From positions 1-57,648 of the forward strand of contig JAHITY010000023.1 in NCBI GenBank assembly GCA_018817165.1: DNA of 57,648 bases, in the 5' to 3' direction. The stretch comes from Candidatus Omnitrophota bacterium (GTDB lineage Bacteria; Omnitrophota; Gorgyraeia; B26-G9). The number at the start of each line of letters is the position of its first letter. Positions within the stretch are counted from its first letter, which is position 1. Position numbers and translations under genes: made by a program. Positions 13,604 to 57,450 of this stretch are shown one piece after another. A model generated the notes under the pieces. That model saw only the letters and a program-made list of their open reading frames with translations, made no database searches and was not told where the DNA came from.

Positions 13604-14044
13604 TTAAACCTCAGTAAGCGCTGTTTTTTTAAAGCAGATCATTTGATAAATTGCTTTAGCCGCTTTTCCGTAAATTACGATCTTATCTTGGCCCAAACAA
13701 AACGTAAGCCTCTTTAGCCAACTATCTTTATACTCCAAATCAGACATAGAGTCCCAAGCTAAGAAAATTGGACTATGCAAAACAGCAAAGATAAAGGCTG
13801 TACTTATAATTAATCCTTTATCTATGATCTTAATATTAACGCAACTGCGATATGAACAGCGACGATTTAAATTAAGACTTTGCCAACTAAAACTATTAAT
13901 AATATCAACATTTCCCGCCGTAAGCGGAAATTGTTTAGCGATCCGATACCAGCCGCCGATCAGACTGATTAGGGCGGAGACTCCGATCCAAACAGTGATA
14001 AAGCCAAGTATTAAATATATAGGATTCAATTGATTTATGATCAT
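13604..14044 (-). CDS. Hypothetical membrane protein (cassette-like)
   Basis: N-terminal TM helix; GTTAAAC core lies 2 nt upstream of the ATG. Confidence 0.7.
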   Translation of the reverse strand: MIINQLNPIYLILGFITVWIGVSALISLIGGWYRIAKQFPLTAGNVDIINSFSWQSLNLNRRCSYRSCVNIKIIDKGLIISTAFIFAVLHSPIFLAWDSMSDLEYKDSWLKRLTFCLGQDKIVIYGKAAKAIYQMICFKKTALTEV

Positions 14045-14046
14045 TA

Positions 14047-14066
14047 GTTTAACATTTTAGCTCAAG
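14047..14066 (-). repeat. attC-like right arm (L'-spacer-R')
   Basis: Minus strand CTTGAG-CTAAAAT-GTTAAAC. Confidence 0.6.
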
Positions 14067-14117
14067 TAGAGTAATCAGGCAATGATGAAATTACCTTAAG
14101 CAATTTATTGAATTCAA

Positions 14118-15271
14118 TTATTTTAAATGTTTTTTAAAAAAATCTACTACTTTTTGCTTGGAATTAATATAGCCATACGGAACCTTTAATTTTTTGAAGC
14201 CTTCAGTAATCGGATAATTATGAATTGTCTGGGCAGAGTCAACTAGATCAGGAATAATCTCATCGTAAATCCCATACAGATCAGTTGTATCGATAAAACT
14301 GCTTTCAAAGTCTACAACTTTTACTTTTATCAAAGGGCTTAAGACTGTTATAAAAGACGCGATACTCGATCCCCCGGAATGCGCCATAAGCCCAATTTTA
14401 TCCTGGTCTAGATAATTAAGCGTCATTAAATACTTTTCCACGAGTAAAGTTTCGAAAACCCTAAGCCCGCTCAAGGTAAAACCATTTAATAATAATCTTT
14501 TACTGATTATATATTCTGTTTCCGTCAATCCCATAGCTCTAAAGGAAGGAATGATAAAGGAAAATCCCTGTTTAACTAAATCCTCGACAAAGAATTCTTC
14601 CTCAAATTTTTCAGCAGATTGTCCATGACCATGCAGCCCAATAATCACCGGGCTTTGGTCACGGCTTTGTTTGGATAATAACATCAGCACCTCAAAAGAG
14701 CCGACATGCTTGTTTTGAAATAAAAGTTTTTTTTCAATATAAAACTCTCTGTCAATGATAGCCGTACAAGTTACCCTGAGCTGCTCCTGATCTAAACTAT
14801 CTATTAAATAGCCGATATTTAATTTTTCCATGACTATATTTTTAAGATTATCTATTTGACTGATTATCGGCTCAGAGAATTCTTTTGATTTCGCTTGTTT
14901 TATAATTAGAGCTAAGACAGCTTCATTAATTTTTTTTGATGCTGAATATGATTTTCAGGAAACCAGTAATATTCTGCCAGATTTCTCAAAATTTTATTTT
15001 TAAGAATTTCCGGATTTATCGCGTACTTAGGATCAAAAACAGGATGATTTTTTTGTTTAACAATAGCTTCTTCGATTAGCTTATTTAATTCATTATCATC
15101 AATTTTATTGAAATTTGGCTGCTCGGAGAGAGGGAAATTTATTAAATTATCGCTATCAACCGCATATTTAAGAGAAAAATCATTCTTCTCCTTCACTATT
15201 ATTGCTGAAGCAGGGCAAAGCAAAAAATTACAAAAAAATATTGCTGCTAAAATGGTCAGAATCACTTTCAT
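14118..15271 (-). pseudogene. Secreted alpha/beta-hydrolase split by a 1-nt frameshift in an A8 run (ORFs 14912-15271 and 14118-14831)
   Basis: The upstream ORF has a signal peptide. The downstream hydrolase frame (GLHGHG, AHSGG) stays open back to the T8 tract at 14930-14937. One extra A gives a 384-aa protein. Confidence 0.7.
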
Positions 15272-15273
15272 TT

Positions 15274-15768
15274 TTAAGATAATTCCCGTTGCTGCTTTTG
15301 CGCTACTAAAAACGCATTCAATTGATTGGCGAATTCATGCGCGTCTTTTTTACTAAAAGCCGCCGGGCCTTTGGTCTCCATGCCGCTATCACGCAGCTCT
15401 TGCATCAGATTGCGCATTGATAAATAATGTTTTACATTATCCTCATCAAAAAACTTTCCCCGCTGATCAAGCGCATAGGCTTTTTTGCTGATCACGCCAT
15501 CAGCTAAAGGAATATCCGCGGTAATCACCAGATCTCCGGGCTTGACCATAACAATAATCCGCTGATCAGCTTCATCCGGACCAGCTTCGACAATAATATA
15601 AGTTATCAGCTCTGAGTTTCCAATACTGATCCGCTTGTTTGAGACCACAACTGTCGGCAGAGCAAAGCGTTCAATTGCCCGAAACAAAATCGCCTTTAAA
15701 CCATTAGGAAAAGCATCTCCATCAAGATATAAAGTCAGATTCATTAACATATTTTTAATCCAAATCAA
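15274..15768 (-). CDS. YaiI/YqxD family protein (DUF188)
   Basis: LYLDGDAFP, DEADQRI and GDLVITADIPLA motifs; true start probably 15750 or 15741. Confidence 0.9.
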   Translation of the reverse strand: MIWIKNMLMNLTLYLDGDAFPNGLKAILFRAIERFALPTVVVSNKRISIGNSELITYIIVEAGPDEADQRIIVMVKPGDLVITADIPLADGVISKKAYALDQRGKFFDEDNVKHYLSMRNLMQELRDSGMETKGPAAFSKKDAHEFANQLNAFLVAQKQQRELS

Positions 15769-15789
15769 AAGTTAATATATAAATATACT

Positions 15790-16287
15790 TTATTTTAAAA
15801 ATTTAAAAGTAGCCACACTAGCTTCTATGACTTCTTCCATATTTTCATCTGTGCTATCTTTATCATATGTAGCCATTATCGCGTAACTATCTTGCCCATT
15901 CATAACTATATAATAAGAAATCGCGTTTGTCCCTTGCAGCTCGCCAAACCAATAACCATCAACTCCATCAATAACCGTTTCAGACTCTTCTATTATTTTA
16001 AACCCTTGCTGTTGCATAAAACTACGCATAACTTTAATAAGTTCCTCAAATGTTTTTCCTGATGCGATTTTTTGATATTGCACCCCTAGCTTCACTCTGC
16101 CTTCAGGATCAGTGAATGTCACGGTTACTCCAAAAGCACTCTTAGTCTTTGTCCATCCCTCAGGAAATTTAATCGAAAAGCCTTTAGTTTTATCATAATA
16201 TCTTCCCGGCTCTTTTGGGCTGCCGCAGCCTACTACCATACAGATTAATAATGAAACACACAAAAACATCGCAATTCTTCTTCGCAT
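15790..16287 (-). CDS. PsbP/DcrB-like lipoprotein
   Basis: Lipobox VVGC; GFSIKFPEGW; ends VATFKF. Confidence 0.7.
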   Translation of the reverse strand: MRRRIAMFLCVSLLICMVVGCGSPKEPGRYYDKTKGFSIKFPEGWTKTKSAFGVTVTFTDPEGRVKLGVQYQKIASGKTFEELIKVMRSFMQQQGFKIIEESETVIDGVDGYWFGELQGTNAISYYIVMNGQDSYAIMATYDKDSTDENMEEVIEASVATFKFLK

Positions 16288-16310
16288 ACAAATATCCTTT
16301 CTATATAAAA

Positions 16311-22048: not shown

Positions 22049-22503
22049 TTTTCGCTCGATTCCTATTATACTGATTAGTCAGCTACCATTCATTCTCAAA
22101 TTTCTTCGATAATATTGCTGATCCGCTGAGCAAATTGAACCAGATAACCAATAATGACATAACGCAAATTCTTAATCCGCTATTTTTCTTTTCACAGGCT
22201 ATCCTTATCGATCACAGCAGACCGACATTTATTAATCAAGCAGATTTCCTCAACTGCATAATCCCCGATCCCAACAATAACTCCGCCTAAACTCTTATTA
22301 TTTATTGTCTTCCACAGCACTATTTATTTTTCATCAATTTTCCGGATTACACTTCTTCAAATAAACTGGAACTCCAAAAAAAATAGCTAGATTACGCGAT
22401 AAAATAACCACAAAAAATATTAAGAGATCTTTTTTTATATACCCTCTTTTATTTATTTACAATTTTAAATAGCTATAAAATTTATTATACATTCTAATTG
22501 CAA

Positions 22504-22937
22504 TTATCGCAATGATTTATCTTTCTCCCCATAACAGACATTACTCATTTCGCTGCTAAACATTTTCCATTTACAATTAGCTTTTTGAAAAATAGTAATA
22601 ACATTAGTGCTTAGATCTCTAAATTCCGGACCGCTGATCTTTCGCGTGATCTGAAACCAACTGGCTTTTGCCATGGTTTTACCACTTCAATAATCCGGAT
22701 ATCGCTCACCACATATTCTAGATCATATGCCTCAAAAATATATTTCATTCTAGATCGGGTTTCCCCTAAACCGGTGAAGCTGGATCAACTATATTCATAT
22801 ACGTTTCTAAATCCTCCGCTTGCGCAGCCCTGAAATTTTCCTAGATCAAAGCGATTATTTCATTTTTTCATTGTTTTTTGGCGAACAGCCGATTAAAAAT
22901 ACCAATCAAACAAGCCACAGCACTTTTATGTTTTCAT
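22504..22937 (-). pseudogene. Decayed NTF2/SnoaL-like lipoprotein gene
   Basis: Reconstructable across stops and frameshifts as ...LIGCS...ENFRAAQAEDLETYM...IFEAYDLEYVVSDIRII...FQITRKISGPEF...KWKMFSSE. Confidence 0.55.
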
Positions 22938-22970
22938 TATTTCTCCTGTTTATTTCCTCTAAATTAAAAA

Positions 22971-24212: not shown

Positions 24213-24219
24213 TATTTCT

Positions 24220-24291
24220 CCCTAAGCTTTGAACTCAACTAACTGAAACCACACAAGCACGGATAAAAGCAGCTACAGTAAGTTGTTAGAT
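24220..24291 (-). repeat. Degenerate attC-like site
   Basis: Minus strand ATCTAAC...GTTGAG-TTCAAAG-CTTAGGG; core GTT mutated to CTT. Confidence 0.4.
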
Positions 24292-24359
24292 ATTTTATAT
24301 ATTGGACTAAACCATCATTGCATCGACCAGTCTAAATTATCCCTTTCAAGACAATTAGA

Positions 24360-24992
24360 TTACAAATAAGATCCCTCTTGCTCTAAAGCTGCCATTCTTG
24401 TTCCCAGCATATCCATAAATGATCCGCGATCACCGGTCCACTGAAAACTATTCCCGACAAATACATCACAGAAAAACGGAACTAATATCGCTTCCCCCTT
24501 GGGAAGCGCTTTTCCCAGTCCGTGCATAAAAACAGGAATTATCGGAACATTAGGAAACTTCTCGGATATCCGGCTAATCCCAGATTTAAACACAGATATT
24601 TTTTCCGGTTCCCCCCGAGAACCTTCCGGAAAAAATATTAGAATTTCATTTTTTTTCAATGAATCATAACAATCAGAAAACATATCTTCTTTTACAAATT
24701 TCACATCTCTTCTTAGCGGAATTATTCGGATAATTTTCTGGGAAAACCAAGACAGCAATGGATTTTTCAGAAAATAATCCATTGCGGCAACCGGACGAAC
24801 AATCTTCATTGCCTTTTGCTTAAGAATAGTAATTAACACCATGGCATCCAAATGGCTATTGTGGTTGGCAATAATTATAGCCGGGCCTACCTCAGGTAGT
24901 CTATCTCGATTACGCACATTTACGCCTAGGATAATATTTACAATTAACCTGACAAACAAATTTAAAAATATATATCTAAGTATTGTATTCAT
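24360..24992 (-). CDS. Lysophospholipid acyltransferase (PlsC family)
   Basis: NHNSHLD (HxxxxD) and FPEGSRG. Confidence 0.92.
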   Translation of the reverse strand: MNTILRYIFLNLFVRLIVNIILGVNVRNRDRLPEVGPAIIIANHNSHLDAMVLITILKQKAMKIVRPVAAMDYFLKNPLLSWFSQKIIRIIPLRRDVKFVKEDMFSDCYDSLKKNEILIFFPEGSRGEPEKISVFKSGISRISEKFPNVPIIPVFMHGLGKALPKGEAILVPFFCDVFVGNSFQWTGDRGSFMDMLGTRMAALEQEGSYL

Positions 24993-24993
24993 A

Positions 24994-25920
24994 TTAATAA
25001 TATAAATACCTCACAAAATGAAAAAACAAAGGGGCGGTATAGGTTAAACTGTCAATTCTGTCCAGTATCCCCCCATGACCCGGCAACATCGCTCCGCTAT
25101 CTTTTAATCCTAAATCTCGTTTTAAAGCGGAAATTACTACATCTCCGATAAATCCCGCTGTACTAATAATCAACCCGGCAATTATCGAATGTATTGGACT
25201 TAAAGGGGTCAATATTGGGGCAATAAGATATGCCAAAACACAAGTAACAATAACTCCGCCAAAGAACCCCTCATAAGTTTTATTTGGGCTTACCTTAGGA
25301 ATTATTTTATGTTTTCCAAAAGTTTTACCAGTAATATATTGTGCCACATCATTAAACTGAGTAAGAAAAACCAGATATAAAACCCAGCCGCCATTACCCG
25401 CAACCAAACCGCCTATTTTCGGCATCACCAAGAAAAACGAAACATGGCTAATACTGTATACTGTGGTCATCAACCCCCAGTGTAAAGTACCTGCGGCATT
25501 TAAAAATCCTTGCGTCTGCCCGATAAGCACCATGCGCAATGGTAATAACAGAAAAACATACAACGGAATAAAAATTAAAAACATACCATACCACCCTGAA
25601 TAAACCCAATAATACTGGATTAGAATAGACAAGTATGCCCAGAACAATACCCGATGATCGGCCCTGCGCGTGGGGATCATCGATAAATATTCTTTGAGTG
25701 CCAAAAAACTTAGGAATCCGAAAAACAAAATTGATACTTTTTTGGATAAAATCATCGCCAAGGAAAAAATTATTATCATTATCCACCAAGACTTTACACG
25801 GTGGGATAGCTCCTTATAATCTTTTTGCGGTTTTATTTTTTTTAAAACAAAAACCACAGTACTCGCAATAGACAACATTACAAATAATCCCATCAAGCAG
25901 ACAATTATATTAAACGGCAT
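24994..25920 (-). CDS. Phosphatidate cytidylyltransferase (YnbB/CdsA family)
   Basis: SPNKTYEG, KRDLGLKDSG..LPGHGGILDRIDS. Confidence 0.93.
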   Translation of the reverse strand: MPFNIIVCLMGLFVMLSIASTVVFVLKKIKPQKDYKELSHRVKSWWIMIIIFSLAMILSKKVSILFFGFLSFLALKEYLSMIPTRRADHRVLFWAYLSILIQYYWVYSGWYGMFLIFIPLYVFLLLPLRMVLIGQTQGFLNAAGTLHWGLMTTVYSISHVSFFLVMPKIGGLVAGNGGWVLYLVFLTQFNDVAQYITGKTFGKHKIIPKVSPNKTYEGFFGGVIVTCVLAYLIAPILTPLSPIHSIIAGLIISTAGFIGDVVISALKRDLGLKDSGAMLPGHGGILDRIDSLTYTAPLFFHFVRYLYY

Positions 25921-26527
25921 GCTTATTCACCTCTTTCAATGCGCTGCTTATTCGGTTAAATATAGTTAAGCCCAATAAAGCGATAATCAACAATAACATA
26001 ATCGTATATATCCGTGGCGTAAACAAACCGAATCCAATAAATAAGGAAATCAATCCAAATACAAATGCCCGGTCACTTTTGCCCATTGGGCCATTATATT
26101 TTCTTTGCGCACCGATTTGGACACTAACCACCCCCGCCATTTCACTAATAACCGACAGCAAGACAATTACTAAGACACACATTCCATTCAAACTGTTTAT
26201 CAAGGCAAAAGGTAAATACAAAGTAATATCCGAAAATACATCTCCAAGTTCATTCAGAATAGCTCCAAGGGAAGTCTTCATATTAAATTCTCTGGCAAGC
26301 ATTCCATCAATAGCATTTAATGCCATACGCACAAGCAGCACCAAGGGAATAATAAATAATATTTTTTCATTCTGACGAAAAAACACAATTGTTCCTCCGC
26401 CAATAAACGAAACCAATATTGCACTAAACGTAACCTGATTGGCCGTAATCCCGGCCTTAGCAAGATTTTTAACTAAGGGCCTTAGTAAATCCTGAAACTT
26501 AGGTTTAATATCGTATATCGATGGCAT
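25910..26527 (-). CDS. CDP-alcohol phosphatidyltransferase (YnbA-like)
   Basis: YDIKPKFQ, TANQVT, NAIDGMLARE, GPMGKSDR. Confidence 0.92.
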   Translation of the reverse strand: MPSIYDIKPKFQDLLRPLVKNLAKAGITANQVTFSAILVSFIGGGTIVFFRQNEKILFIIPLVLLVRMALNAIDGMLAREFNMKTSLGAILNELGDVFSDITLYLPFALINSLNGMCVLVIVLLSVISEMAGVVSVQIGAQRKYNGPMGKSDRAFVFGLISLFIGFGLFTPRIYTIMLLLIIALLGLTIFNRISSALKEVNKHAV

Positions 26528-26551
26528 ATAAATATCCTTTTTATTTTTCTT

Positions 26552-26572
26552 AGCTAAGGTCTAATCTCAGGC
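26552..26572 (-). repeat. attC-like right arm, core mutated
   Basis: GCCTGAG-ATTAGAC-CTTAGCT. Confidence 0.45.
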
Positions 26573-26660
26573 AGAGAAACCTGACGCCATTTAATAGCGG
26601 ATTACTTTTAATTCAAGTAAAGGGGCTCGATTATTGATTATTGCTTATAACTTTTGCGCC

Positions 26661-28084: not shown

Positions 28085-28121
28085 TTAACTTCTTTCTTAA
28101 AACTGAATAAGATTTATGATT

Positions 28122-28383: not shown

Positions 28384-28393
28384 AATTATTTAA

Positions 28394-28420
28394 TTATCTG
28401 ATTAGAGCTCAAGCAGCCCC
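28394..28420 (-). repeat. attC-like right arm remnant fused to a GGGG junction motif
   Basis: GGGGCT-GCTTGAG-CTCTAAT; core lost. Confidence 0.4.
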
Positions 28421-28428
28421 TTTTTTCT

Positions 28429-43058: not shown

Positions 43059-43118
43059 ATCGCAACCTCACCATCCGAAACATAATATTCAACTTTAAAC
43101 TATTTAGCATAGCTACCC

Positions 43119-43176
43119 CGTTTCTTCATCGAACACCTCCTTCGGGTATTGTGTCCGTCAAGTCCGGGCTAGCTCA
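43119..43176 (-). mobile_element. Second IS3-family left-end remnant
   Basis: Same IR and ATGAAGAAACG as 38237-38308, with an internal deletion; supplies the stop codon of the DUF3592 gene. Confidence 0.7.
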
Positions 43177-44472: not shown

Positions 44473-44853
44473 TTACATGTGTTCCAATTTTTTATGAACA
44501 TATAGAAATATCAATAAGAAGCCAAAATCTAAAAACGCAAAAACAACCCAGATTAAAGGAATTACTCCAAAAGCCAAATGATAAAATACCACTGAACAAT
44601 AAGATATTTTTAACAAAATCCCATAAAGCAATAAATTCTTATTGGCTATCGGATCTCTGGCAATATTCATAAACAGAACCGCAAACGCTATCAATAACAA
44701 TGCCGGAAATTGAACATAACCTAAATGATTCGGAGGAGTAATATTAAACGTCTTACAAATCTGCAGCGGAACAATTAGAAATAAAACACCTAGAATCCCA
44801 TCATACAAAGCGGCAAATATAAAAAAAGGTTTTAGCCATTTAGGAATCTCCAT
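44473..44853 (-). CDS. Membrane protein (radical SAM operon)
   Basis: Four TMs, IARDP; overlaps the radical SAM gene end. Confidence 0.75.
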   Translation of the reverse strand: MEIPKWLKPFFIFAALYDGILGVLFLIVPLQICKTFNITPPNHLGYVQFPALLLIAFAVLFMNIARDPIANKNLLLYGILLKISYCSVVFYHLAFGVIPLIWVVFAFLDFGFLLIFLYVHKKLEHM

Positions 44854-46183
44854 TTTTCACTCTCCTTTTTTCGCGGATATTATTGCGTAAATTATTTTTA
44901 AAATTATCCCTGCGCCAAGCAGTAAATTCCTTACTGTATAACTTAACTCCCAAATTTCTAAAACCAGATGTTAATTCATCGGCAGTCATATTATTTGGCT
45001 TAAAGTTCAAATCAAACAAAGTACATTTCCGCCATTCTTTATCCTCAATTATTCTGTTCTCTTTTTTCAAACGCGCATACAAAGGAGTACCGGGAAAGGC
45101 AGTCATAATTGTTATCTGCACTTCATATAATCCTGATTCTTTTACAAAATCAAAAATTTGATCAAATATTTCCGGACCATGACCATCTAAGCCTATAACA
45201 AAACAGCCGTTCACAGTTATCCCATGTGATTGGATTATTTTTATCGCATCCTTATATTTACTTAATCTTTTAAATTTCCAATCCGATCGGGTTTCAAGCC
45301 CTTTTAACCCTGTTAATACTGGGCTTTCAAATCCAATCAAAACCTGAGCGCAACCACTTTCCCGCATAAGGTCCAATAACTCCTCATCCTCACTAACCGA
45401 AAGATCTGTTTCTGTAAACCACTTAATATTCTTATCCTTTAATTTCACAAGCAGTTCTTTCCAATAAGCTTTGTCTACAATACTATTATCATCCGCAAAT
45501 TCAATAAAGGGATATTTCCAGATATCGAGTATTTTGTCAATCTCCTTAATAACCTTATATATCGGCTTTTGCTTATATTTACTGGTTAAAATAACAGAGC
45601 TGGCACAAAATTCGCATTTATGCGGACAACCTCTGCTGGTTTGCACAGTAAGCCGATTATATTTAGAAATATCCAACAGTTCAAAAGCAGGCATTGGCGC
45701 ATCAGCTAAATCAAATGAACCAGTCAAAGATCCATAATTTTGCTTAAGCTCCCCTTTTTCACAGTCTTTAAGCACCTGATTCCAGACCAGCTCTCCTTCC
45801 CCAATAATCACAGAGTCACAATACTTGATTGCCTCTTCAGGCAGACAGCTCACATGCGGACCGCCAATAACAACTGGAATCCCTTTTTCCTTATACCTAG
45901 CGCCAAGCTCATACGCTTCATCTATTTGAGCGCTATAGCTTGAAATAGCCACTAAATCAAAACCATTCGGAATCTCATCGATCTCTTTTAAATTAGGGAT
46001 TTCAATATACTCTATTTTATGTTCTTTAGGAGTCATTCCCGCAAGCGTTAACAATCCAAGACTAGGTAAAGAGGCGATTGTTTTACTTCTTTCCACAAAA
46101 CCAGGTAAGGTTAAACCCAGCCTCAAAAGCTCCTCATCACAAGCACGAATACCGCTCATTGCTAAAAGTCCGATTTTCATCAA
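44840..46183 (-). CDS. B12-binding domain radical SAM protein
   Basis: PSLGL.TLAG.TP, GGPHV, TSRGCPHKCEFC, F.DDN, PGTPLY. Confidence 0.93.
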   Translation of the reverse strand: MMKIGLLAMSGIRACDEELLRLGLTLPGFVERSKTIASLPSLGLLTLAGMTPKEHKIEYIEIPNLKEIDEIPNGFDLVAISSYSAQIDEAYELGARYKEKGIPVVIGGPHVSCLPEEAIKYCDSVIIGEGELVWNQVLKDCEKGELKQNYGSLTGSFDLADAPMPAFELLDISKYNRLTVQTSRGCPHKCEFCASSVILTSKYKQKPIYKVIKEIDKILDIWKYPFIEFADDNSIVDKAYWKELLVKLKDKNIKWFTETDLSVSEDEELLDLMRESGCAQVLIGFESPVLTGLKGLETRSDWKFKRLSKYKDAIKIIQSHGITVNGCFVIGLDGHGPEIFDQIFDFVKESGLYEVQITIMTAFPGTPLYARLKKENRIIEDKEWRKCTLFDLNFKPNNMTADELTSGFRNLGVKLYSKEFTAWRRDNFKNNLRNNIREKRRVKNGDS

Positions 46184-46581
46184 ATCTCCTTTTTAATATA
46201 ACCAAATGCCATTATAAATACAGCACAAGCAAATGATCCAGCCGGAATAAAAAATAAGTTCTCGAAAAATCTATTCCATATAGTCAAAAGACAAATCGTC
46301 GGCATAAAAACAGCAGCATTGATCATTGTATATGATCCGATTCTTTTATACTTCAAAGACAATTCTGCTGCATCAATACATAATCCATAAAGAATATTAG
46401 TCAACGATAAAGCCATAAAAGATAAATGTGCCAATCTTAAAAATCGCCTAGTTAAACCCGCATAACCACCCAGCCATTCCGATTTAAAAGCAAATAATCC
46501 TATCCACATGGCCATCAATATTCCAACAAACAACCAACTCCAACCAAATCTTATATTATTCAAACCTATCTTATTTTTCAT
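46180..46581 (-). CDS. Membrane protein (radical SAM operon)
   Basis: GW.W...GY....RR.LRL.H; ATGA overlap with the radical SAM gene. Confidence 0.75.
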   Translation of the reverse strand: MKNKIGLNNIRFGWSWLFVGILMAMWIGLFAFKSEWLGGYAGLTRRFLRLAHLSFMALSLTNILYGLCIDAAELSLKYKRIGSYTMINAAVFMPTICLLTIWNRFFENLFFIPAGSFACAVFIMAFGYIKKEI

Positions 46582-46623
46582 TTTTTCCTTTTATTTTTTA
46601 CTTCATATATTCATTTTGACTTT

Positions 46624-49503
46624 TTAATGGTCAACTGCAATTATGCAGTACTTATTTTCGTGGTCTACACACAAAAAATAAAGTTTTCTCTCTGAACTCC
46701 CAATAAATTCCTTTAACTTGTAAACAGGATTGATTGCCTTTGTCTGTACAATCTTATACCCTTGCTCTAGGTCTTCTTCCAGCCAGACAATTCCCTCAGG
46801 GCCAAAACAAAGTATTCGCCCATCCTCTTGTTCACAAATAAAATTAAGATTTTCTACATACGTGTCCTTAATATCTAAAATGTTGATACTTTTCGATTCT
46901 ATATCACTTATTATTCGATAACCTTTATAAACCCTTTGATTCCGCTCTACGATGAGTTTCCCTTCCTTATTAATGAGTACTGGTCTTCCTGAATAAGGAA
47001 CTCTCAAATATGTATCCTTGTCTATTGTCTTCCAAACTCTGTCATAATTGTTGTAAAAATAAACACATCCTGAAGTATAATCAATAAGAGGAAGACTATA
47101 AATATTTCCAGGTTCTGTTAAAGTGCCAGTTACCCAAGCTTCGGATGGACTGGATAAACGTTCCAGTTTAATACCGCTTTCATCAGGAACAGCCAAAAAG
47201 ATATCCTGTATACAATTTTTATTAGCTAAAATCATCATCTGTTCCGTAGAATTTATTTTTATAGGACCTAAAATAGCTGGAGAATCTACTTTTACAGGCA
47301 AATCAGATAAGTCAATCCTTTTCTGTATAAAAAGAGGTCTTGAATCTTTGTATATTTCAACCTTGTTATTATCGCAAATCCATAAAATATCCTTAAATAA
47401 ACATATATTCATATTGCTTTTATTATTTTCCTTTTTTTGAGAGGCATTATCTACATAACATTTATCTGGAGCTATGCGCAATAAAAGCTCAAAGTATTTC
47501 TGAGCAAGTTCATGAAAATCCCTACCTTTCCATAAATTTTCTTCTTGTATAACATATGAAGATTCCTCAGACAAAATACAAATAGATCCATTTTTACCTG
47601 GAATTAGCTTTGTGTTTCTCTCATCAACAAATATAGGATATTGAAAGATATTTTTTCCTTCACAACAAAATATATTTCCCTTTTTTGTGTAGCTTTCTCT
47701 ATATAATTCATTCTTGTCTAATTCTTTTTTTTCATCAGGGCTTAACCAAGTTACTTTTTTATCTATGATTTTAAAATTATCTTTCTCAAAACCGGCCATA
47801 ATTCCTGAGCTGAAAAATGAATCGCTATTTGAAATGAACCATATACGTCCCTTTGAGTCCATAACAGCTTTATTGCTTGCTGGTAACAGTTTAATAGGAG
47901 GTTGCGAATGCTCATTAAAATTACTTTTATAAACCCAAAATTGTTTATTTTGATGTTTTGAATAGTCATTGTAATAATCCTTCCTAAGGAAATATATTCG
48001 TCCGTTCTTATCGCTTCCGATGCATTGCTCCATTGATTTCATAATCAAGCTTTTATCGAGCCATACGAGCGTTCCTTCTTCTATTCGTGCCAAGCCGTTT
48101 TGTGGAAGGAAAAGTACTATTCTACCCATTTCATCTCTCATAAAACGAATATTGTACCCATAATTGCCAATAGATTTATCAAAAGAGTAAACTTCATATA
48201 AATGTCCGTCATTTTTAAGATGGAAAATTCCACCCAGAGAATTTCCTGTATCATTTTCAATATATCTCAAAAGTAAATAGACTCCAGCAGCTCCTTGGTT
48301 TTCGAGAACACGCATTCCACTTATCCATCTTCCATCAAAATATTGATATCCCTGAGAAAGAAGATCTCCAATTCTTCGAATAGAGTAAGGAGACATCAAG
48401 CCTGTTATGCTGTCTATTTCATTTATAGCTCTCTCAATTTGATCAGTGGTTTTATTCAGAGTTTCATTTAATTTTCTTGTTTTATCTTCATCGTTTATTT
48501 CATTATTAAAATAATCTTCATTCTGCATAGAATGCATAACTGAGATTAAGGAGTGCTCTAATCTTTCCAGATGTATGTATTGAGAGGGAATTTTTCTCAG
48601 CTCCTGAGATATATCTCTGAAATATTTCTTGTCATAGACTGAAACTTTTTTTAATAATGGAACTAATTTATCAATATCTTTATTTTTGGCATATTCTATA
48701 ATATTATTCAGATCCTCTTCTTTTGGTTTACTATCATATTTTTCATTTAAAAAAGCGATCTTTGAACCAATAACAATCCATCGACCATCTTGACAATGAA
48801 GCGCTACTTGCATATTACTCAATGGAAAGTTTTTGTTTTCAATCTTATTGATTGCACCTTCCTTTCCATTGATTATATAAATAATGTAATCTTTATCTAT
48901 CTTCCCCTGATTTTCTGGAAGAACAATTAAATCCTCTCCTGCAGGAATAATTGAAGAATGTCGGATAATCTCTTCAGAGATAATAGGTTCGCCTGCTTCT
49001 TTTCTTAATCCATCTGATGAGTTAAAAAACCACTGGCCACCCATATTATAAGCAGAGCTATATTTAATGCCTTTAGGTATATTAATATTTTTTGTTTTAT
49101 TATTCTTTACAATTACACCTTCTTGCATTTTTCCACCAACAATAACAAGTTCCTCTTCTTTTCCCCACCCTATGACCTCTCCATCGATCATAAGATGGAA
49201 TTGGCCATTTAATTTAAGAAAACTTTTAAGAACACGATCAAAAGAGGCCCTATAATAATTATCGCCCTTATCCATAACAAAAATCGGAACATGTTCCGGT
49301 GAAGTATAAATCCTTGCGATATTACAAGGTAGTGGAACTAATCGTTTTTCTTCATTAAGATCCTTATAAATCTGTTCTCCAATAAGGTCATGTAATTCTA
49401 ATTCGTCTATAACTCCACTTGATTCATTTTTAGCTGCTATACTTTCTAAAGATAAACAAAGCATAATTGAAAAAAAGATTGTGATAAATAATTTAAATTT
49501 CAT
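46624..49503 (-). CDS. Large exported protein, probable beta-propeller
   Basis: Signal peptide; repeated D..GRI(W/Y)F blades; 959 aa. Confidence 0.7.
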   Translation of the reverse strand: MKFKLFITIFFSIMLCLSLESIAAKNESSGVIDELELHDLIGEQIYKDLNEEKRLVPLPCNIARIYTSPEHVPIFVMDKGDNYYRASFDRVLKSFLKLNGQFHLMIDGEVIGWGKEEELVIVGGKMQEGVIVKNNKTKNINIPKGIKYSSAYNMGGQWFFNSSDGLRKEAGEPIISEEIIRHSSIIPAGEDLIVLPENQGKIDKDYIIYIINGKEGAINKIENKNFPLSNMQVALHCQDGRWIVIGSKIAFLNEKYDSKPKEEDLNNIIEYAKNKDIDKLVPLLKKVSVYDKKYFRDISQELRKIPSQYIHLERLEHSLISVMHSMQNEDYFNNEINDEDKTRKLNETLNKTTDQIERAINEIDSITGLMSPYSIRRIGDLLSQGYQYFDGRWISGMRVLENQGAAGVYLLLRYIENDTGNSLGGIFHLKNDGHLYEVYSFDKSIGNYGYNIRFMRDEMGRIVLFLPQNGLARIEEGTLVWLDKSLIMKSMEQCIGSDKNGRIYFLRKDYYNDYSKHQNKQFWVYKSNFNEHSQPPIKLLPASNKAVMDSKGRIWFISNSDSFFSSGIMAGFEKDNFKIIDKKVTWLSPDEKKELDKNELYRESYTKKGNIFCCEGKNIFQYPIFVDERNTKLIPGKNGSICILSEESSYVIQEENLWKGRDFHELAQKYFELLLRIAPDKCYVDNASQKKENNKSNMNICLFKDILWICDNNKVEIYKDSRPLFIQKRIDLSDLPVKVDSPAILGPIKINSTEQMMILANKNCIQDIFLAVPDESGIKLERLSSPSEAWVTGTLTEPGNIYSLPLIDYTSGCVYFYNNYDRVWKTIDKDTYLRVPYSGRPVLINKEGKLIVERNQRVYKGYRIISDIESKSINILDIKDTYVENLNFICEQEDGRILCFGPEGIVWLEEDLEQGYKIVQTKAINPVYKLKEFIGSSERKLYFLCVDHENKYCIIAVDH

Positions 49504-52079
49504 TTTTCCTCCTTAAATGCTTTATCTTCTTCTAATGCTTTTTCTGGCAAACTAATCAGATGTAAAATATTCTCTTTTTTTGAGCCGCTGGTCGTTGAAA
49601 TAAAAGCAAGATAACCTTTTCTGCTATAAAAAGATTTACTTATTTCACCTTGATATTTTTCTAAATAATAAATGTCAGCAATCTCATAATCCTTGAAGTC
49701 TGATTTTCTGTCGGCTTTCAAATGATCCATTCCAAAACTTGACCAAAGATAAACAGAACCGGGAGCATCTGAAAAAAGATAGGAAGAAGATGATGATGAA
49801 AATGGTATAACTATTTCATCGACTATTTCATTATTGCGACAGACAAAAAAAGTATTTGATTTTTTTCCTCTTATGTCATTAAGCCAAATATTTTGTGCTC
49901 CATCGCAAAGAATCGGCCAACCAGAGTCTTTTAAAGAACCTATAATTCCTTTCTCATTAACACATGTTGCTGCCTGACCAACAGAGTCGCACACTCCCAT
50001 AGACATGTTGTTTGTGGCAGGGATCCAAAGAGCCCCTGAAACATCTTTTATGCTGCTCTTCATATATACCTCTTCAGAAGTATGAGGAGCTTTTTCAAAA
50101 ACCATTTTTCCATCCTGGATATTACCAAAAAATGAACTTCCGCTATCATCTGCCAGTCCAAAATCTGTTATATAAACTTTTTCACCATTTCCTACTGTAT
50201 TGATATACCACGGTTCTCCTGTTCTGGCTCCTGCCTCCATAAGAGTTGATTTTGCATTAAACCATTTATCACTTATAAGAACGCTAAGTTTTCTTGCATC
50301 AAGAAGCCATATATTTCCGTTACTATCAGCAACTATTCCATTTACAAAACTGTAATAACACTCTTTCTCCGAAGGCATACTTGTAAAATGCTTTCTAGCA
50401 TCATCTCGATTTTTAAAAATAAGGTCTTTTAAATTTTCAGACTGAAAGACCTTATCCGGAGTAATATAAAAGTACAAGGTATCCATACAACATAAGATCC
50501 TTCCTTCCTTACCCGGGAGCATGTACTTGATCTTCCTGTTACGAAGAACTTCTGGAGCTAAATGCCAGGTTTTCCCATCATAAAATGAGAGCCCCCTTTC
50601 TTCTAAAATTGCCCAAATATTTCCATTGGAATCCACACAGAAACGTTCACTCTTCAAATCAAATGTTTCTTCTTTGAGGATTTTTCTATTATCTGCTTTT
50701 TCAGACTGATAAATCCCAGGTTTTCCTTCTTTTGTAAAGAAAACCATTCCTTCCTTCTTCATACCAATGACAGATGTAGTATTCATCTCAGGAATCTCAT
50801 CAATGAAAACTCCTTTTACAAAATCAAGTCTCCTTGGCTTAGAGCCATTATACCCCCCGATCCAAATGCTTTTACCATCAGGGCAAAGATAAGTCTTGGT
50901 CCATGCCCCAGATTCAATGAACTCCTTGCCAGAATGAAAAATCGGTTTATCTTGATAATTAAGAACAAGCAAACCATCCTCTACTTTTTCTCCTTTTTTA
51001 AGAACATTTTCAACTTTAAAAAAGCTTATCCCCGTTTGATTATCTATATGCAAACGTCTTATTTTTTCAATATTAAGGTCTCCAAATTGAGTAAAAGAAT
51101 CCTTTCCTGATTGAGTAAAAGAATCCTTTCCGGAAAGTTCTTCTAAAACCCACATAAGCTGCTCAAGAGCATTAGAATCATATGTCTCGTTTAAAGCCTT
51201 CTTAATATCATGCCTGACGTTTTCTCCAAGATTTAATATCTGTTGAGCAATATCTCTTCTAACCTCATCTGTTTCTGCAGATTTGAGAGATTCGAAAAGT
51301 CCAATAAAATCAACTTTTTTTGAAGCATTTTTGTAAGGAATAAAATCCATACTATCATAATCTTTTGTCGCCCACACCCCACCGTTAGAGGGAGTGATCT
51401 GTTCTATTTGAGTATTATAATCAATAATATGCTCCCACTTCTCATCACGCCACCTCCAGAGATCAAGAACATTACCTCGTGCAATATTTCCCCCATCATT
51501 GATCTCGGTAATTCCGACAGCCAATACTCCGAGTTTATCAGGCTCAAGATAAAGATAAACGTTATTATGATATGTCCTTTCAACTATTTTCTTAAAGCTC
51601 CATTTTTCACCATCAAAAATATGTACCCCGCTTGCTCCGATAAAAAAAAGATGCTTTCCAATTTGATAATTTGATTTACTCCTGAAATATTCATTATGTA
51701 TTGTATGATGAATCCATTCTTTACCATCATAACCGGACATTATTCGACCGTTATCTCTTAGAAACCAAATCCTTCCATTAGATTCAAACAATGCTGGTTC
51801 ACAATCATAAAGCTGCGGTTCCTTTTTATCAAATTGATTCATAATCACTTTTAGTGAAATATTTGGATCTTCTCTCATGCCGCCCATAGAACTCAATTGA
51901 TACCATATTCTATCATCAGGTCCGATATAAACTGAACTTAGCTGATGCGGGAGCATTTGCAGCATGCAATCATTTATATTAATTGGGCCTATATTGTGCG
52001 GATATTCATCTGTAGAGGAAAAACATGGTATTTCCAAAAATAGAAGAACTAAAAGAAAGAATAATAGTTTACTTTTCAT
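49500..52079 (-). CDS. Large exported beta-propeller protein with a HEAT-like insert
   Basis: Signal peptide; D..G.IW and YDGK.W blades; helical VRRDIAQQILNLG segment; ATGA overlap with the next gene. Confidence 0.7.
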   Translation of the reverse strand: MKSKLLFFLLVLLFLEIPCFSSTDEYPHNIGPININDCMLQMLPHQLSSVYIGPDDRIWYQLSSMGGMREDPNISLKVIMNQFDKKEPQLYDCEPALFESNGRIWFLRDNGRIMSGYDGKEWIHHTIHNEYFRSKSNYQIGKHLFFIGASGVHIFDGEKWSFKKIVERTYHNNVYLYLEPDKLGVLAVGITEINDGGNIARGNVLDLWRWRDEKWEHIIDYNTQIEQITPSNGGVWATKDYDSMDFIPYKNASKKVDFIGLFESLKSAETDEVRRDIAQQILNLGENVRHDIKKALNETYDSNALEQLMWVLEELSGKDSFTQSGKDSFTQFGDLNIEKIRRLHIDNQTGISFFKVENVLKKGEKVEDGLLVLNYQDKPIFHSGKEFIESGAWTKTYLCPDGKSIWIGGYNGSKPRRLDFVKGVFIDEIPEMNTTSVIGMKKEGMVFFTKEGKPGIYQSEKADNRKILKEETFDLKSERFCVDSNGNIWAILEERGLSFYDGKTWHLAPEVLRNRKIKYMLPGKEGRILCCMDTLYFYITPDKVFQSENLKDLIFKNRDDARKHFTSMPSEKECYYSFVNGIVADSNGNIWLLDARKLSVLISDKWFNAKSTLMEAGARTGEPWYINTVGNGEKVYITDFGLADDSGSSFFGNIQDGKMVFEKAPHTSEEVYMKSSIKDVSGALWIPATNNMSMGVCDSVGQAATCVNEKGIIGSLKDSGWPILCDGAQNIWLNDIRGKKSNTFFVCRNNEIVDEIVIPFSSSSSSYLFSDAPGSVYLWSSFGMDHLKADRKSDFKDYEIADIYYLEKYQGEISKSFYSRKGYLAFISTTSGSKKENILHLISLPEKALEEDKAFKEEK
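51087..51134. repeat. 24-bp in-frame tandem duplication (SGKDSFTQ x2)
   Basis: ttgagtaaaagaatcctttcc(t/g)ga twice. Confidence 0.85.
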
Positions 52080-52104
52080 AGAAAACCCCTGAATTTATTT
52101 TTTC

Positions 52105-52878
52105 TTAATTCACATCTAATTTAACTGGAATTTTATTAATTACATCAGCAAATATTTTTTTAAATGATTGCCAATCAAGAATATCACTATTTTTCTGGGA
52201 AGCAGTGTAAGAGAATACTATCTTTTCCTCAGTGACTCCCACCATTTTCATTATTACTGTCACAGTACTTTTTTCCTGCAATGATTTCCACAATCCTCGC
52301 CTCGCAATAAAACTTTTCACTTCAAGATACATTACTGTATCAATATTTTTTGGGATTACTGGCTTCATATCAATCGTTCTTAAGACTAGCGGACTTGGCT
52401 TTTCATCTTTTTCATCATCTTTGTTTAATTCTTTTAAAGTTTTTATATTGCCGTTAGCGTCTTTAACTCCCATATTCCCAAACAATAGTTTAAAAAATTC
52501 TTTACCCGAATCTTCATCGGAATCTATCCCCGTAGGATGTAAAAACTCTTTTATCGCGAGTATCGCTAACTGGTCACTTTCATTTTCAGAATCAAGTGAT
52601 TGAAATTCCTGACTATATCCTGCAATTTTATAACCTCTCTTGGTAAACTCTTCTTGTAGCATATTTTTTATATTTTCTTTTGACTCTTTGATCATTGCGG
52701 TTAGATTTTCTCTGGATATATCATAACCAACATCTAAAGTAACCTCAGTAACAATCGGCATAACATAAACTGAATTTACTGCTTGCGGATCGACAAAAAC
52801 ATCCGAACGAATATATGGAACCGTTGAACATCCTGCTAAAAATAACACAAGAAAAATAACTATTAATATTTTCTTCAT
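52105..52878 (-). CDS. Hypothetical lipoprotein
   Basis: Lipobox LAGC; AAGGA RBS. Confidence 0.75.
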   Translation of the reverse strand: MKKILIVIFLVLFLAGCSTVPYIRSDVFVDPQAVNSVYVMPIVTEVTLDVGYDISRENLTAMIKESKENIKNMLQEEFTKRGYKIAGYSQEFQSLDSENESDQLAILAIKEFLHPTGIDSDEDSGKEFFKLLFGNMGVKDANGNIKTLKELNKDDEKDEKPSPLVLRTIDMKPVIPKNIDTVMYLEVKSFIARRGLWKSLQEKSTVTVIMKMVGVTEEKIVFSYTASQKNSDILDWQSFKKIFADVINKIPVKLDVN

Positions 52879-52896
52879 TTTATATCCTTTTTAATA

Positions 52897-53107
52897 CTAT
52901 AACGTTTAAGCTCAGGCTTTTTAGCTGATAGCCGATGGCTTATAGCTTATAGTTTTTTTACTATTGCCCATTAGTCATGAGCTATTGACTATTTTCTTAA
53001 GCAAATTTTATGATTTACCAACAAATCAGAGTTTAGCCCTTCGAAAAGCTCAGGATAAACTTATAGCGTTAAGCGTTTAGAAAATGTCAATAGTTCAGAC
53101 CTACCCC
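52897..53107 (-). repeat. Mosaic spacer: GGGG junction, REP half, left arm, heptamers, right arm
   Basis: GGGGTAGGTC...CATAAAATTTGCTTAAG...GCCTGAG-CTTAAAC-GTTATAG; REP-like cccttcgaaaagctcaggataaa at ~53037-53059. Confidence 0.75.
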
Positions 53108-55690: not shown

Positions 55691-55761
55691 CCCTAACTTC
55701 TGAGCTCAGGCAGCTTCTCCCGCTATGGCGGCAAGCAAACACACAGCATTATCCACTTGCC
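55691..55761 (-). repeat. attC-like right arm plus central modules
   Basis: GGATAATGCTGTGTG...CCGCCATAGCGGGAGAAGCT-GCCTGAG-CTCAGAA-GTTAGGG. Confidence 0.7.
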
Positions 55762-56020: not shown

Positions 56021-56058
56021 CTTCCCTATTTATTTTTGTTCAATGTCAAGGTTTAACC

Positions 56059-56451
56059 CTATTGTTCTTCAACAACTTTCCAACCATCTAAGTCGCCAGG
56101 CAAATAAAGAACTTCCCTTAAGTAATATTCTATCGCTTTTTCCGCAGAATTAAATATTTTTTCTGTTTGCATTGTGATTTTATTTAGATCGTAAGGGCTC
56201 GCTGCGCGCGATCTATAAATATATTTGTTTTTATCAATTTTTTCTATTACAGTAGCGTCATCTATAGGTTCGCCATTCTTTTTTGAAATCCATTCGTGAG
56301 GGAACCATTTATATGTTTTTAAATATTCAATTATTTCATTTCTTAATTCTGTTATTGTTAACGGAGGGTGTGGCCAGATACCTTGATCTATTCGTTCTTC
56401 CATGTTTAGGTGTCCACCCTTTAATAGAAATATTTTCGTTTTTGATTCCAT
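56059..56451 (-). CDS. Hypothetical protein
   Basis: 130 aa; GTTATAG core upstream; ends LPGDLDGW. Confidence 0.7.
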   Translation of the reverse strand: MESKTKIFLLKGGHLNMEERIDQGIWPHPPLTITELRNEIIEYLKTYKWFPHEWISKKNGEPIDDATVIEKIDKNKYIYRSRAASPYDLNKITMQTEKIFNSAEKAIEYYLREVLYLPGDLDGWKVVEEQ

Positions 56452-56463
56452 TATTAATTTTTC

Positions 56464-56543
56464 CTATAACACTTAAGCTTTGACCATGAGTTTGTCGAAT
56501 GGCAAACAGCTTGTCCGCTATGGCGGAGAAGCAAATTTTATGG
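56464..56543 (-). repeat. attC-like site with a REP half inserted at L'
   Basis: CCATAA-AATTTG-CTTCTCCGCCATAGCGGACAAGCTGTTTG|ccattcgacaaactcatggtcaa|AG-CTTAAGT-GTTATAG. Confidence 0.65.
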
Positions 56544-56865
56544 TTTGCCAAAAATAGAACCGTCCCCTTTATTTCTTTTAGTTTTTTCACTATTTAAATA
56601 AATCAATTTATCAAACAACGTCCCCGCTCATTTCTTCTTTTTAGTATTTAAGATTTATTTTAATTTTTTCACACATAGTTCATAAAGTTTTAATTAAACC
56701 TAACAATAGCTTGTCTACTTTTTTTGCTATTGACCATTAGCCATCAGCTATTAACTGTTTTCTTAAGCAAATTTTATGGTTTACTAAAACCAACCCGTCC
56801 CTTTTAATTCTTTTAGTTTTTTCTCTATTTAAATAAATCAATTTATCAAACAACGTCCCCGCTCA
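56529..56865. repeat. Imperfect ~100-bp direct repeat (56529-56630 and 56765-56865)
   Basis: aagcaaattttatggttt...ctatttaaataaatcaatttatcaaacaacgtccccgctca twice. Confidence 0.85.
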
Positions 56866-56934
56866 CATAAGCTCTTCTGAATCCGCGGCGTTTTCTGCCG
56901 CGGGTTCAGGTCAAGCTCAAATGTTTTGTTATGC
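56860..56934 (-). repeat. attC site of the first cassette
   Basis: GCATAAC-AAAACA-TTTGAGCT...CTGAACCCGCGGC/GCCGCGGATTCAG stem...AGCTTA-TGTGAGC-G. R'' is complementary to GTTATGCAT at the cassette start. Confidence 0.8.
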
Positions 56935-56938
56935 ATTT

Positions 56939-57379
56939 TTATGGATTAGTTCCTCCTGGATCAGGATAAATAATTTCGCCCCAAAGGTTTCCAGTTTCTT
57001 TTTCTAGTAATAATACCCATTCGTTTGCGTCTGATCGATTTTGATAATATAACAAATTATTTTCTGAGGGCAACTTGTTATGCGTAAGGTGTTCAATCCC
57101 CAGTAAGTTTATAAAAGGTGGTATATAATTCATAGAAACATGATTATTAATCTTCTGAAATTTATATTTTTTTATAAACTCCTTTATGTTGTTTTTTGGT
57201 AATTCAAGATAAAAAGTTACATAGAATTCGCCATTATCATAGGTTTCTATATTCACACTGTTATCAGGAAAAGAAATTCCTGTGATTTGCGAAATCCAAG
57301 TAATATTATTTTGAGATTTAGAACAGTTAATCGCCGTAATAAATATCAACAGCAATATTATGTTTCTAATAATTTTCAT
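56939..57379 (-). CDS. Hypothetical lipoprotein (first cassette)
   Basis: Signal peptide with Cys (AINC); AAGGA RBS; bracketed by complementary core sites. Confidence 0.8.
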   Translation of the reverse strand: MKIIRNIILLLIFITAINCSKSQNNITWISQITGISFPDNSVNIETYDNGEFYVTFYLELPKNNIKEFIKKYKFQKINNHVSMNYIPPFINLLGIEHLTHNKLPSENNLLYYQNRSDANEWVLLLEKETGNLWGEIIYPDPGGTNP

Positions 57380-57392
57380 TTTATTCCTTTAT

Positions 57393-57450
57393 ATGCATAA
57401 CAGTAAATATGTGTTTTGTCGCTTTTTGTAATATTTTTAGTTTAGGAACA
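57393..57450 (-). other. Candidate attI site
   Basis: GTTATGC core preceded by A-rich sequence (ACAAAAAGCGACAAAACACATATTTACT) with no attC L' arm or stem, at the head of the array. Confidence 0.45.

Follow-up and report, generated by a model that had tools for sequence, protein, structure and literature searches.

A probable relic of an integron cassette array at a conserved chromosomal place in an Omnitrophota genome

Most of the DNA stretch analyzed here is filled by a long run of genes on one strand, which raises the question of whether these genes derive from an array of integron cassettes and, if so, in what state this array is preserved. The stretch (the window, 57,648 bp) is the entire contig C78 of a Candidatus Omnitrophota genome (G000; 3.08 Mb in 143 contigs, 36.9% G+C) and is present in two groundwater metagenome runs. 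A first-pass annotation had noted the pattern [GC]YTGAG-N6/7-GTTRRR in 17 intergenic gaps, had read it as part of attC, the site recombined by the integron integrase IntI, and had proposed a large sedentary integron or a cluster of attC sites that has no integron-integrase (CALIN). On balance, we favor the view that ∼10.9–57.5 kb is a CALIN-type, largely fossil cassette array without an integrase, which retains the CALIN half of that proposal, as a relic, and gives up the working sedentary integron.

The attC family of the lineage and its traces in the window

Elsewhere, the genome encodes two full-length IntI without stop codons, at C73:1062-2363 and C48:11270-12565, which score 407.7 and 403.1 bits, respectively, against TIGR02249 (cut-off 265). 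Both genes are located at contig edges, and upstream of each, on the opposite strand and hence divergent, a canonical attC runs off the contig. Its elements, in order, are YYTAAC as R'', a spacer of 5 nt, GCTcCAGGgCA as L'' (two of the bases being extra), a loop, TGCCTGAGC as L', TCAAAT, and GTTATRR as R'; the general anatomy of the family has 6 nt between L' and an R' box of GTTRRR. Iterated nhmmer searches retrieved ∼11 such sites on C73, C48, C64, C97, C69, C66, and C49, as well as a single clear one in the window. In the eight sites of the genome itself, 85.9% of the alignment cells pair, versus 13–41% after sliding of the partners. For 32 sites taken from this genome and from six relatives of several genera, the share is 88.7% (75.9 ± 1.2 when shuffled; reached in 0 of 500 shuffles) and 73 cells have changed on both sides (30.4 in shuffles; again 0 of 500), the alignment behind these figures being one fitted to the model. 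Among the 40 relatives searched, 13 have IntI above the cut-off, including 10 of the 17 that belong to the family of this genome and the two others of its genus. Seven loci allow intI to be placed, and in every one of them the attCs are directed away from it. The closest named relatives of IntI that were found, 41–50% identical, belong to an Omnitrophota metagenome-assembled genome and to Methylophilaceae. The two paralogues within the genome are 53% identical to each other, with adjacent attCs that belong to one sequence family; the relatives G002, G017, and G018 likewise carry two IntI each.

Judged by its sequence, the motif in the window is the L'-spacer-R' arm of this genuine, lineage-specific attC family, as had been suggested from the letters of the window alone: the same arm ends the canonical attCs next to IntI, in this genome as well as in its relatives. 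The motif itself is real, but the strict form of the pattern proved too narrow, as it occurs on the gene strand at only 3 of the 17 places (14048, 41148, and 55692), plus once within a gene (6249). Genome-wide, on both strands, it has 30 matches, with four in the window where ∼0.56 would be expected. The looser consensus of the gaps, read on the gene strand, is GCCTGAGCTCAAAnGTTAGRR, a few bases upstream of the ribosome-binding site. Allowing at most two mismatches, CCTGAGCTCAAAnGTTA matches the genome 21 times, five times in the window (0.4 expected by length) and otherwise on C97, C69, C140, C73, C14, C48, C64, and C86. A 20-nt matrix of the 3' arm, built from 31 attC arms, none of them from the window, gave nine minus-strand and two plus-strand matches in the window at ≥10 bits (0.94 expected per strand), and 11 and three at ≥8 bits (1.74 expected). 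Nine of the 17 listed sites score at least 8.8 bits (14047, 24220, 26552, 28685, 29342, 31183, 52897, 55691, and 56464), and minus-strand matches at 6079 and 10106 lie outside the listed sites. The site at 41147 was missed by the matrix because its spacer is 1 nt shorter, yet it is the top match of the covariance model described below; together with it, about 10 of the 17 sites are statistically supported. These 10 show the layout of cassettes, that is, co-oriented genes, the attC 3' of an open reading frame (ORF), and R' abutting the next ORF. As to the others, 34768 and 39430 have the common variant arm GCTCAAACGYT, 28394 has retained L' alone, and 30040, 43087, 44381, and 54994 are indistinguishable from chance by pattern, matrix, and covariance measures. 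A count of arms by fuzzy regular expressions was discarded, having missed 55691, in favor of Hamming and matrix scans. Alignment of each arm with its upstream sequence as an inverted repeat had no power (only 52897 stood out, with z 4.5, and the good site 41147 was missed). A strict rule-based scan for R and L boxes returned three candidates on the plus and four on the minus strand, none at a listed site, which is background level, and Rfam at its gathering threshold had no match in the window.

Whole sites were searched for with two covariance models, R1 (eight attCs; run with filters off) and R2 (32 sites), neither of which contains a site from the window; their E-values are rough, the calibration having been shortened. 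At E < 0.05, R1 had five matches in the window, all on the minus (gene) strand, at listed sites, and in gaps just upstream of gene starts. At E ≤ 10, there were 24, 12 per strand and nine at listed sites, the best on the plus strand having an E-value of 1.1. Of the 15 matches at E ≤ 1 across the genome, 12 fall on C48, C73, C69, C64, C97, C66, and C49, three in the window, and none on any other contig. R2 agrees with R1 on the top three sites of the window.

All sites described in the following are on the minus strand. The best is 41146-41216 (R1, 33.3 bits, E 5e-6; R2, 35.2 bits), in which both arms are kept (5' arm matrix, 19.4 bits), with CATAAAA in place of YYTAAC as R'' and a 3' spacer of 5 nt; its bottom strand has a fold of only −7.2 kcal/mol, in which the L box pairs and the R box does not. 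The most distal site found, 14046-14114 (R1, 28.5 bits, E 9e-5; R2, 29.2 bits; 3' arm, 13.2 bits), has no stable fold (−3.1 kcal/mol, z 0.29). Site 28684-28747 (R1, 22.4 bits, E 0.004; R2, 20.9 bits; 3' arm, 16.6 bits) forms a weak end-to-end hairpin (−7.2 kcal/mol, z −2.6) and is located upstream of an 82-aa gene (28429-28677); arm and gene are 84% identical to G001:C34:95302-95546, where the attC scores 32.4 bits. The marginal site 29341-29413 (R1, 18.9 bits, E 0.03; 3' arm, 15.3 bits) is weakened with R2 (11.3 bits, E 3.5). Site 52896-52959, with the best 3' arm of the window (26.8 bits; R1, 18.3 bits, E 0.05; R2, 17.6 bits), likewise forms a weak end-to-end hairpin (−7 kcal/mol) and heads a six-gene unit of 8.5 kb (44473-52878). 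Two marginal sites have CTT for GTT in R', as has 30040: 26551-26667 (R1, 15.3 bits, E 0.3; R2, 14.0 bits; 3' arm, 11.3 bits) and 24219-24292 (R2, 16.5 bits, E 0.14; 3' arm, 8.8 bits; 5' arm, 14.7 bits, versus 5.6 for the 99th percentile of the null). At 31182-31235, a 3' arm (10.7 bits) is accompanied by a weak score for the whole site (R1, 10.9 bits, E 4.3). At 55691-55710, the L'-spacer-R' arm is strong (22.4 bits) and the 5' arm has diverged, without a covariance match at E ≤ 10 and without a fold. Finally, 56463-56544 is an attC-derived mosaic repeat, TTGGCAAACCATAAAATTTGCTT...GTTATAG (3' arm, 9.8 bits; R1, 9.8 bits, E 8.7), the fold of which leaves R' unpaired; this type of repeat is also found on C140 and C133 and at G001 L027:1149, with its 5' part only at G002 L025:11485. 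Of the two near-complete sites reported previously, 41147-41215 thus stands, whereas 56860-56934 is weak (minus, 13.0 bits, E 1.2; plus, 11.4 bits, E 3.2). In the gap that holds it (56452-56938, 487 nt), a sequence of ∼90 nt (GAGCGGGGACGTTGTTTGATAAATTGATTTATTTAAATAG..) is duplicated in tandem, and an attC-derived repeat follows either copy; the scores of an attC-like element at 56847-56935 are equally weak on both strands. An element beginning with TTGGTAAAcCATAAAATTTGCTT is repeated in several gaps and recurs on the array contigs C140 and C133 and in the corresponding blocks of G001 and G002; from its sequence, it reads as a degenerate R''-spacer-L'' arm. The earlier expectation of a lineage-specific attC so degenerate that automated tools may miss most of it is supported: the sites are decayed, and even models made for the lineage recover only a few.

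Could the arm have nothing to do with integrons and be an expression signal peculiar to the lineage, or a pattern that arises by chance close to ribosome-binding sites? At five sites, the purines of R' run into the Shine–Dalgarno sequence (GTTAGGGAG, GTTGGGAG, GCTAGGAGG, GCTTAGGGAG, and GGTTGGAAATAGGGGG), and the four sites at chance level would fit this explanation. Nevertheless, it is very improbable: the attCs next to IntI, which covary structurally, have the same 17–20 nt as their 3' end; at up to two mismatches, the arm is found on only nine contigs, and on six of these there are also model attC matches or attC-derived repeats; and the whole-site model matches as well, on one strand only.

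A variable block between conserved flanks

The first 10.9 kb of the window (1-10914) are a conserved core flank, recognized by Pfam matches and collinearity, that encodes a HemW-like radical SAM protein, a peptidase MA/TPR protein, a GGDEF protein, an SMC protein, a DUF4139 protein, and the product of one unknown gene. Two other genomes of the genus were compared, each species being represented by one genome, and window positions 226-10904 are collinear with G002:C81 (82–83% identity) and with G001:C34:116621-127199 (69–78%); the SMC part of the flank is present in three further genera. Beyond it, at 10915-57508, lies the variable block, a putative cassette-array relic of ∼51 co-oriented minus-strand genes, which shares only patches with G001 and G002. 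The block thus begins near 10.9 kb and not at 13.6 kb, where the array had been taken to start. G002:C104 is collinear with 12.2–27.7 kb of the window except for gaps the size of units; with G001, there are seven patches in common, not all in the same order; and between 40 and 57.6 kb, almost nothing but short repeats is common to the window and the relatives. In G001, a single contig (C34) contains the whole arrangement, namely, core genes corresponding to C73:66093-113766, a variable block of 32 kb, and core genes corresponding to window positions 10914-152. In its variable block, 3' arms lie on the gene strand at 95304, 98240, and 95634 (28.5, 25.8, and 17.2 bits, respectively). A motif resembling the 3' arm is conserved within the final core gene of this genome and of G001, some 0.8 kb short of where the variable block begins (C73:112977-112996, 15.2 bits; G001:C34:83921-83940, 19.0 bits).

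The orientation of the genes carries no weight in this context. It is correct that all genes from 4.2 kb onward are on the minus strand (the ORFs tiling 4248-57379 are, without exception), but the bias is genome-wide: in 35 windows of 50 kb, the median share of ORFs of at least 200 aa on the dominant strand was 0.97, and in 15 of the 35, it was 1.0. Co-orientation is, therefore, no evidence for an array. The extreme gene-strand bias of this genome (one-strand share of long ORFs, median 0.97 per 50 kb) is matched by its GC skew.

That no integrase is in view holds for the window, although the genome itself encodes two. TIGR02249 has no match on C78, and neither the window nor the orthologous G001 locus contains an intI with attI and the common promoter Pc. 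Searching with IntI by tblastn retrieved no gene or remnant in the window (best E 0.68), the C73 end (0.78), or the G001 locus (0.12). The first-pass annotation had suggested looking for intI beyond the insertion sequence (IS) of the IS3 type at the contig edge; synteny with G001 puts a core flank there instead. This edge (57509-57648, minus strand) is an IS3-type right end, in which the frame 57539-57646 corresponds to the C-terminus of rve_2 (22.3 bits; cut-off 22). The last 141 nt of the window are identical to the end of C75, and the end of C73 is an IS3 left end with orfA, the orientations of the two halves matching. Two solo fragments of IS3-type left ends, both on the minus strand, lie within the block, at 38237-38308 (93% identical to the C73 end, which comprises the IS left end plus orfA) and 43088-43185 (82%). 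As far as sequence comparison goes, the block probably extends beyond one IS3 copy and takes in the final 9.5 kb of C73 (C73:113766-123298).

The same data bear on the notion of a complete, active integron of which the window would be the distal part, the intI being hidden by assembly breaks at repeated attCs and IS copies. Both intI genes are indeed located at contig edges with their arrays running off, contigs do break inside attCs (e.g., C97:1-77), the window ends in an IS, and strand logic would permit C78(+) to be followed by C73(+). Still, this is quite improbable, because the whole locus of G001 is present on one contig between core flanks without intI or its remnant, because the attCs of the window fold unlike those adjacent to intI, and because the IS3 left end with orfA at the C73 end matches the right end of the window, which would put the C73 intI ∼111 kb away, beyond core genes.

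Further features of the flank deserve mention. The SMC protein (4248-8195, minus strand, 1315 aa) has a carbohydrate-binding module inserted next to its hinge (residues 655–741; AMPK1_CBM, E 1.4e-12; CBM_48, E 1e-5), an unusual domain for an SMC protein. At 9925-10120, there is a double hairpin resembling a 5'-untranslated region (..CTGCTNGGCCGCAG.., followed by GGCTGACTTGACGTCG..CCGTAAGTCAGG), which is also found at C73:6667-6770, 8809-8850, and 14140-14600. It has 24 BLAST matches on 13 contigs, some in tandem, and many copies in the genomes of the genus; its sole Rfam match is below threshold (Lnt RNA, 22.5 bits versus a gathering score of 55).

Unit boundaries, decay, and the origin of the block

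If the block was assembled from cassettes, units should have come and gone at R' boxes, and in two cases, boundaries of this kind were found. The first is a lipid unit of three genes (24226-26661, minus strand), encoding an acyltransferase, a CdsA-like protein, and a CDP-alcohol phosphatidyltransferase according to Pfam, which is present or absent as one block and has the sites 26551-26667 and 24219-24292 as its upstream and downstream boundaries, respectively. At the collinear place in G002, it is missing and 72 nt are found instead; homology past the unit resumes at TTAGGGAG / TTATGGAG, the R' box being GCTTAGGGAG in the window and CGTTATGGAG in G002. In G004:C6, the unit is 79% identical and starts at GTTAGAT, 3 nt past the stop codon of the upstream gene. 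A contig from run X1 shows the joint without the unit (24225->26665), with 17 of 145 letters differing, which indicates an origin from a related strain. In another metagenome contig, divergence sets in after 26557, that is, between the first base and the TT of R'. A CdsA paralogue (40%) is encoded on C37. The second case is the remnant of a cassette gene for a putative GTPase (28085-28428, minus strand), which we call rsgA-like from its translation, with an internal deletion and a truncated end. The intact homologue is located in G012:C193 in cassette orientation, ∼2 kb from intI, and homology to the remnant begins at the R' box. Three further candidate joints (27686->31252, 32572->41346, and 37355->43182) were not used, their sides being shorter than 30 letters and touching repeats, and run X2, the contigs of which span just a part of the stretch, was left out of account.

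Several observations weigh against the block as a cassette array. Three other junctions with G002 are located away from attCs: one, the absence of 19437-17925 from G002, is due to a microhomology deletion, and the remaining two lie inside genes. Comparison of gene order in relatives, which the first-pass annotation had suggested as a check, showed variable content next to a conserved flank, but also several indels that are not attC events. Downstream of the gene at 26661-27677, the attC-like sequences of the window and G002 cannot be aligned. Large units occur, such as the six-gene unit at 44473-52878. The number of sites had been overstated previously, with about 10 of 17 supported, the 5' arm is significant at only two of the 17 (41147 and 24220), and the E-values are, as mentioned, rough. 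Only three sites have an E-value below 0.01 by either model, which is about one per 15 kb, versus eight in 15.4 kb in the intI-adjacent array of G013, a density of detectable sites ∼8-fold lower. Between 14.1 and 24.2 kb, ∼12 genes, including one for a methyl-accepting chemotaxis protein (MCP), are without a site supported by R1 or the 3' arm matrix. As single-stranded DNA, the reference attC folds at −23.1 kcal/mol (z −6.2) with both boxes paired; the sites of the window fold at −3.1 to −7.2 kcal/mol, or at −15.4 kcal/mol with R' unpaired, and none resembles the reference. Pairing of R'' with R' and L'' with L', the AAC/GTT triplets, and a folded bottom strand are all found in the family outside the window; within it, R'' is degenerate, R' is CTT at three sites, and the folds are weak or leave R unpaired. 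Lastly, the join from C73 through IS3 to C78, by which the block would lie ∼111 kb from the C73 intI with core genes in between, is deduced from synteny and the matching IS halves and not from assembled sequence.

Several of these observations would be explained if the block were a mixed hypervariable island, that is, a hotspot of illegitimate recombination, IS activity, and other transfer, in which only a minority of the units are cassettes, placed by a trans-encoded IntI at secondary sites or beside earlier attCs. The deletions seen in G002, the three IS3 fragments in or at the edge of the block, the large operons, the MCP with its four paralogues, and the site-free stretch at 14.1–24.2 kb all agree with it, and integration at secondary sites is among the origins listed for CALINs in the corresponding passages of Cury et al (2016; PMC4889954). 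We regard such an island as unlikely, though by no means negligible. Of the 24 gaps of at least 40 nt between 24.2 and 57.4 kb, 9 hold supported arms, always on the gene strand and just upstream of starts, and further gaps hold attC-derived mosaic repeats in common with the array contigs C140 and C133. Moreover, sparse model matches are also a property of intI-adjacent arrays in relatives, where they follow only about a third of the ORFs (e.g., four per 14 ORFs at G004:C8:37.6-47.8 kb). As to the size of the units, a large gene (∼950 aa) directly follows canonical attCs on the array contig C97 (L009; 2100-6275) and at G004:C8:26024-28882; thus, multi-kb cassettes exist in arrays of the lineage.

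According to the favored reading, that of a fossil cassette array, the whole block would have arisen by IntI capture. Integron integrases of the lineage, recombining attC bottom strands in their folded state at the G|TT of R', would have taken up cassettes with the structure TT-RRRY...gene(s)...attC...G, and a head-to-tail series of these would have built up at a single spot of the chromosome, with a core flank on either side. An intI, attI, or common promoter of its own is no longer present at the locus, and the attCs have drifted, with R'' lost, GTT changed to CTT, spacers altered, and repeats turned into mosaics; most are presumably inactive fossils now. Genes have been truncated, and ordinary deletions and IS3 insertions are what shapes the block at present. 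The two intact IntI encoded elsewhere might still act in trans on the least decayed sites (41146, 28684, and 52896).

Not every worn site need be a fossil, as a second, non-canonical attC class might still be recombined by one of the IntI paralogues. Sites of this class would have CATAAA as R'', a GC hairpin in their interior (GCTTCCCCGC...GCGGGACAAGC), and ∼15 nt of spacer ahead of R', the purine run of which would at some of them also serve as the ribosome-binding site. Candidates are common to the window, the array contigs C140 and C133, and the genomes of the genus; repeats of this type show no end-to-end fold, and we consider their activity improbable. If it were real, the 50-kb block would be a working reservoir invisible to standard attC models.

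The genes of the block, mostly of unknown function, comprise those for hydrolases, lipases, lipoproteins, DUF proteins, the MCP, and an aldehyde dehydrogenase, and a B12-radical-SAM operon. Few have paralogues elsewhere in the genome; that at 10946-11317 has one (73%) on the array contig C140. The 922 nt at 22049-22970 contain no ORF of at least 80 aa and are probably the remains of a decayed gene; in G002, 2.4 kb of different sequence are present there.

Comparison with known cassette arrays

In the passages of Cury et al (2016; PMC4889954) on CALINs, these are described as at least two attCs detected by covariance model within ∼4 kb, with no intI gene or pseudogene nearby. No intI is near the block. 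As to clustering, 28684 (E 0.004) and 29341 (E 0.03) are 657 bp apart according to R1; according to R2, the E-value of 29341 is 3.5 and the three sites below 0.01 are spaced by 12–14 kb. Among the origins given there for CALINs, the block fits loss or separation of intI, capture at secondary sites, or both. It also resembles the CALINs of these passages in its co-oriented cassettes with attC-type sites, in having IntI elsewhere in the genome, and in the presence of IS elements and of cassettes of unknown function without resistance genes (PMC4889954). Unlike those described there, most of its sites are too decayed to fold or score and were scored with models of the lineage; it is large (∼47 kb in the window, ∼57 kb with the C73 end) and occupies the same conserved place in at least two species of the genus; and some of its units contain several genes and reach ∼8.5 kb (PMC4889954). 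The complete integrons of this genome are found on C73 and C48.

For sedentary chromosomal integrons, the corresponding passages of the same source name >19 attC sites or occurrence in every genome of a species (Cury et al, 2016; PMC4889954), compared with which the block has at most ∼10 supported sites, in a comparison with one genome per species. Relics of integrons are also described, in the passages of Wu et al (2013; PMC3607928) on Treponema: T. phagedenis has an attC remnant without intI, and the Treponema intI is co-oriented with the cassettes. The block shares with these integrons a low-GC host, lineage-specific attCs missed by standard similarity searches, and attCs and cassettes that outlive intI, and differs in that the attCs of this lineage are divergent from intI (seven loci), which is the canonical layout.

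The Vibrio superintegron is a sedentary chromosomal integron with VCR (Vibrio cholerae repeat) sequences. Unlike it, the block has no adjacent intI, attI, or Pc, and its attCs are heterogeneous and decayed instead of homogeneous. Like sedentary integrons in general, it is a large chromosomal array with a single lineage-specific attC family and strain-variable content (in part after the passages on this class in PMC4889954).

The block is, therefore, one more case of a known type of element and establishes no new principle. What it illustrates is the late decay of an integron array, in which 3' arms and mosaic repeats have outlasted the 5' arms and the fold, genes have become truncated, and deletions of the ordinary kind prevail. 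The chromosomal place is a fixed one, and IntI is common in the lineage, an uncultured one from groundwater (13 of 40 relatives searched). Such relics are likely undercounted by attC models, and the cassette-derived gene content of metagenome-assembled genomes may, therefore, be underestimated.

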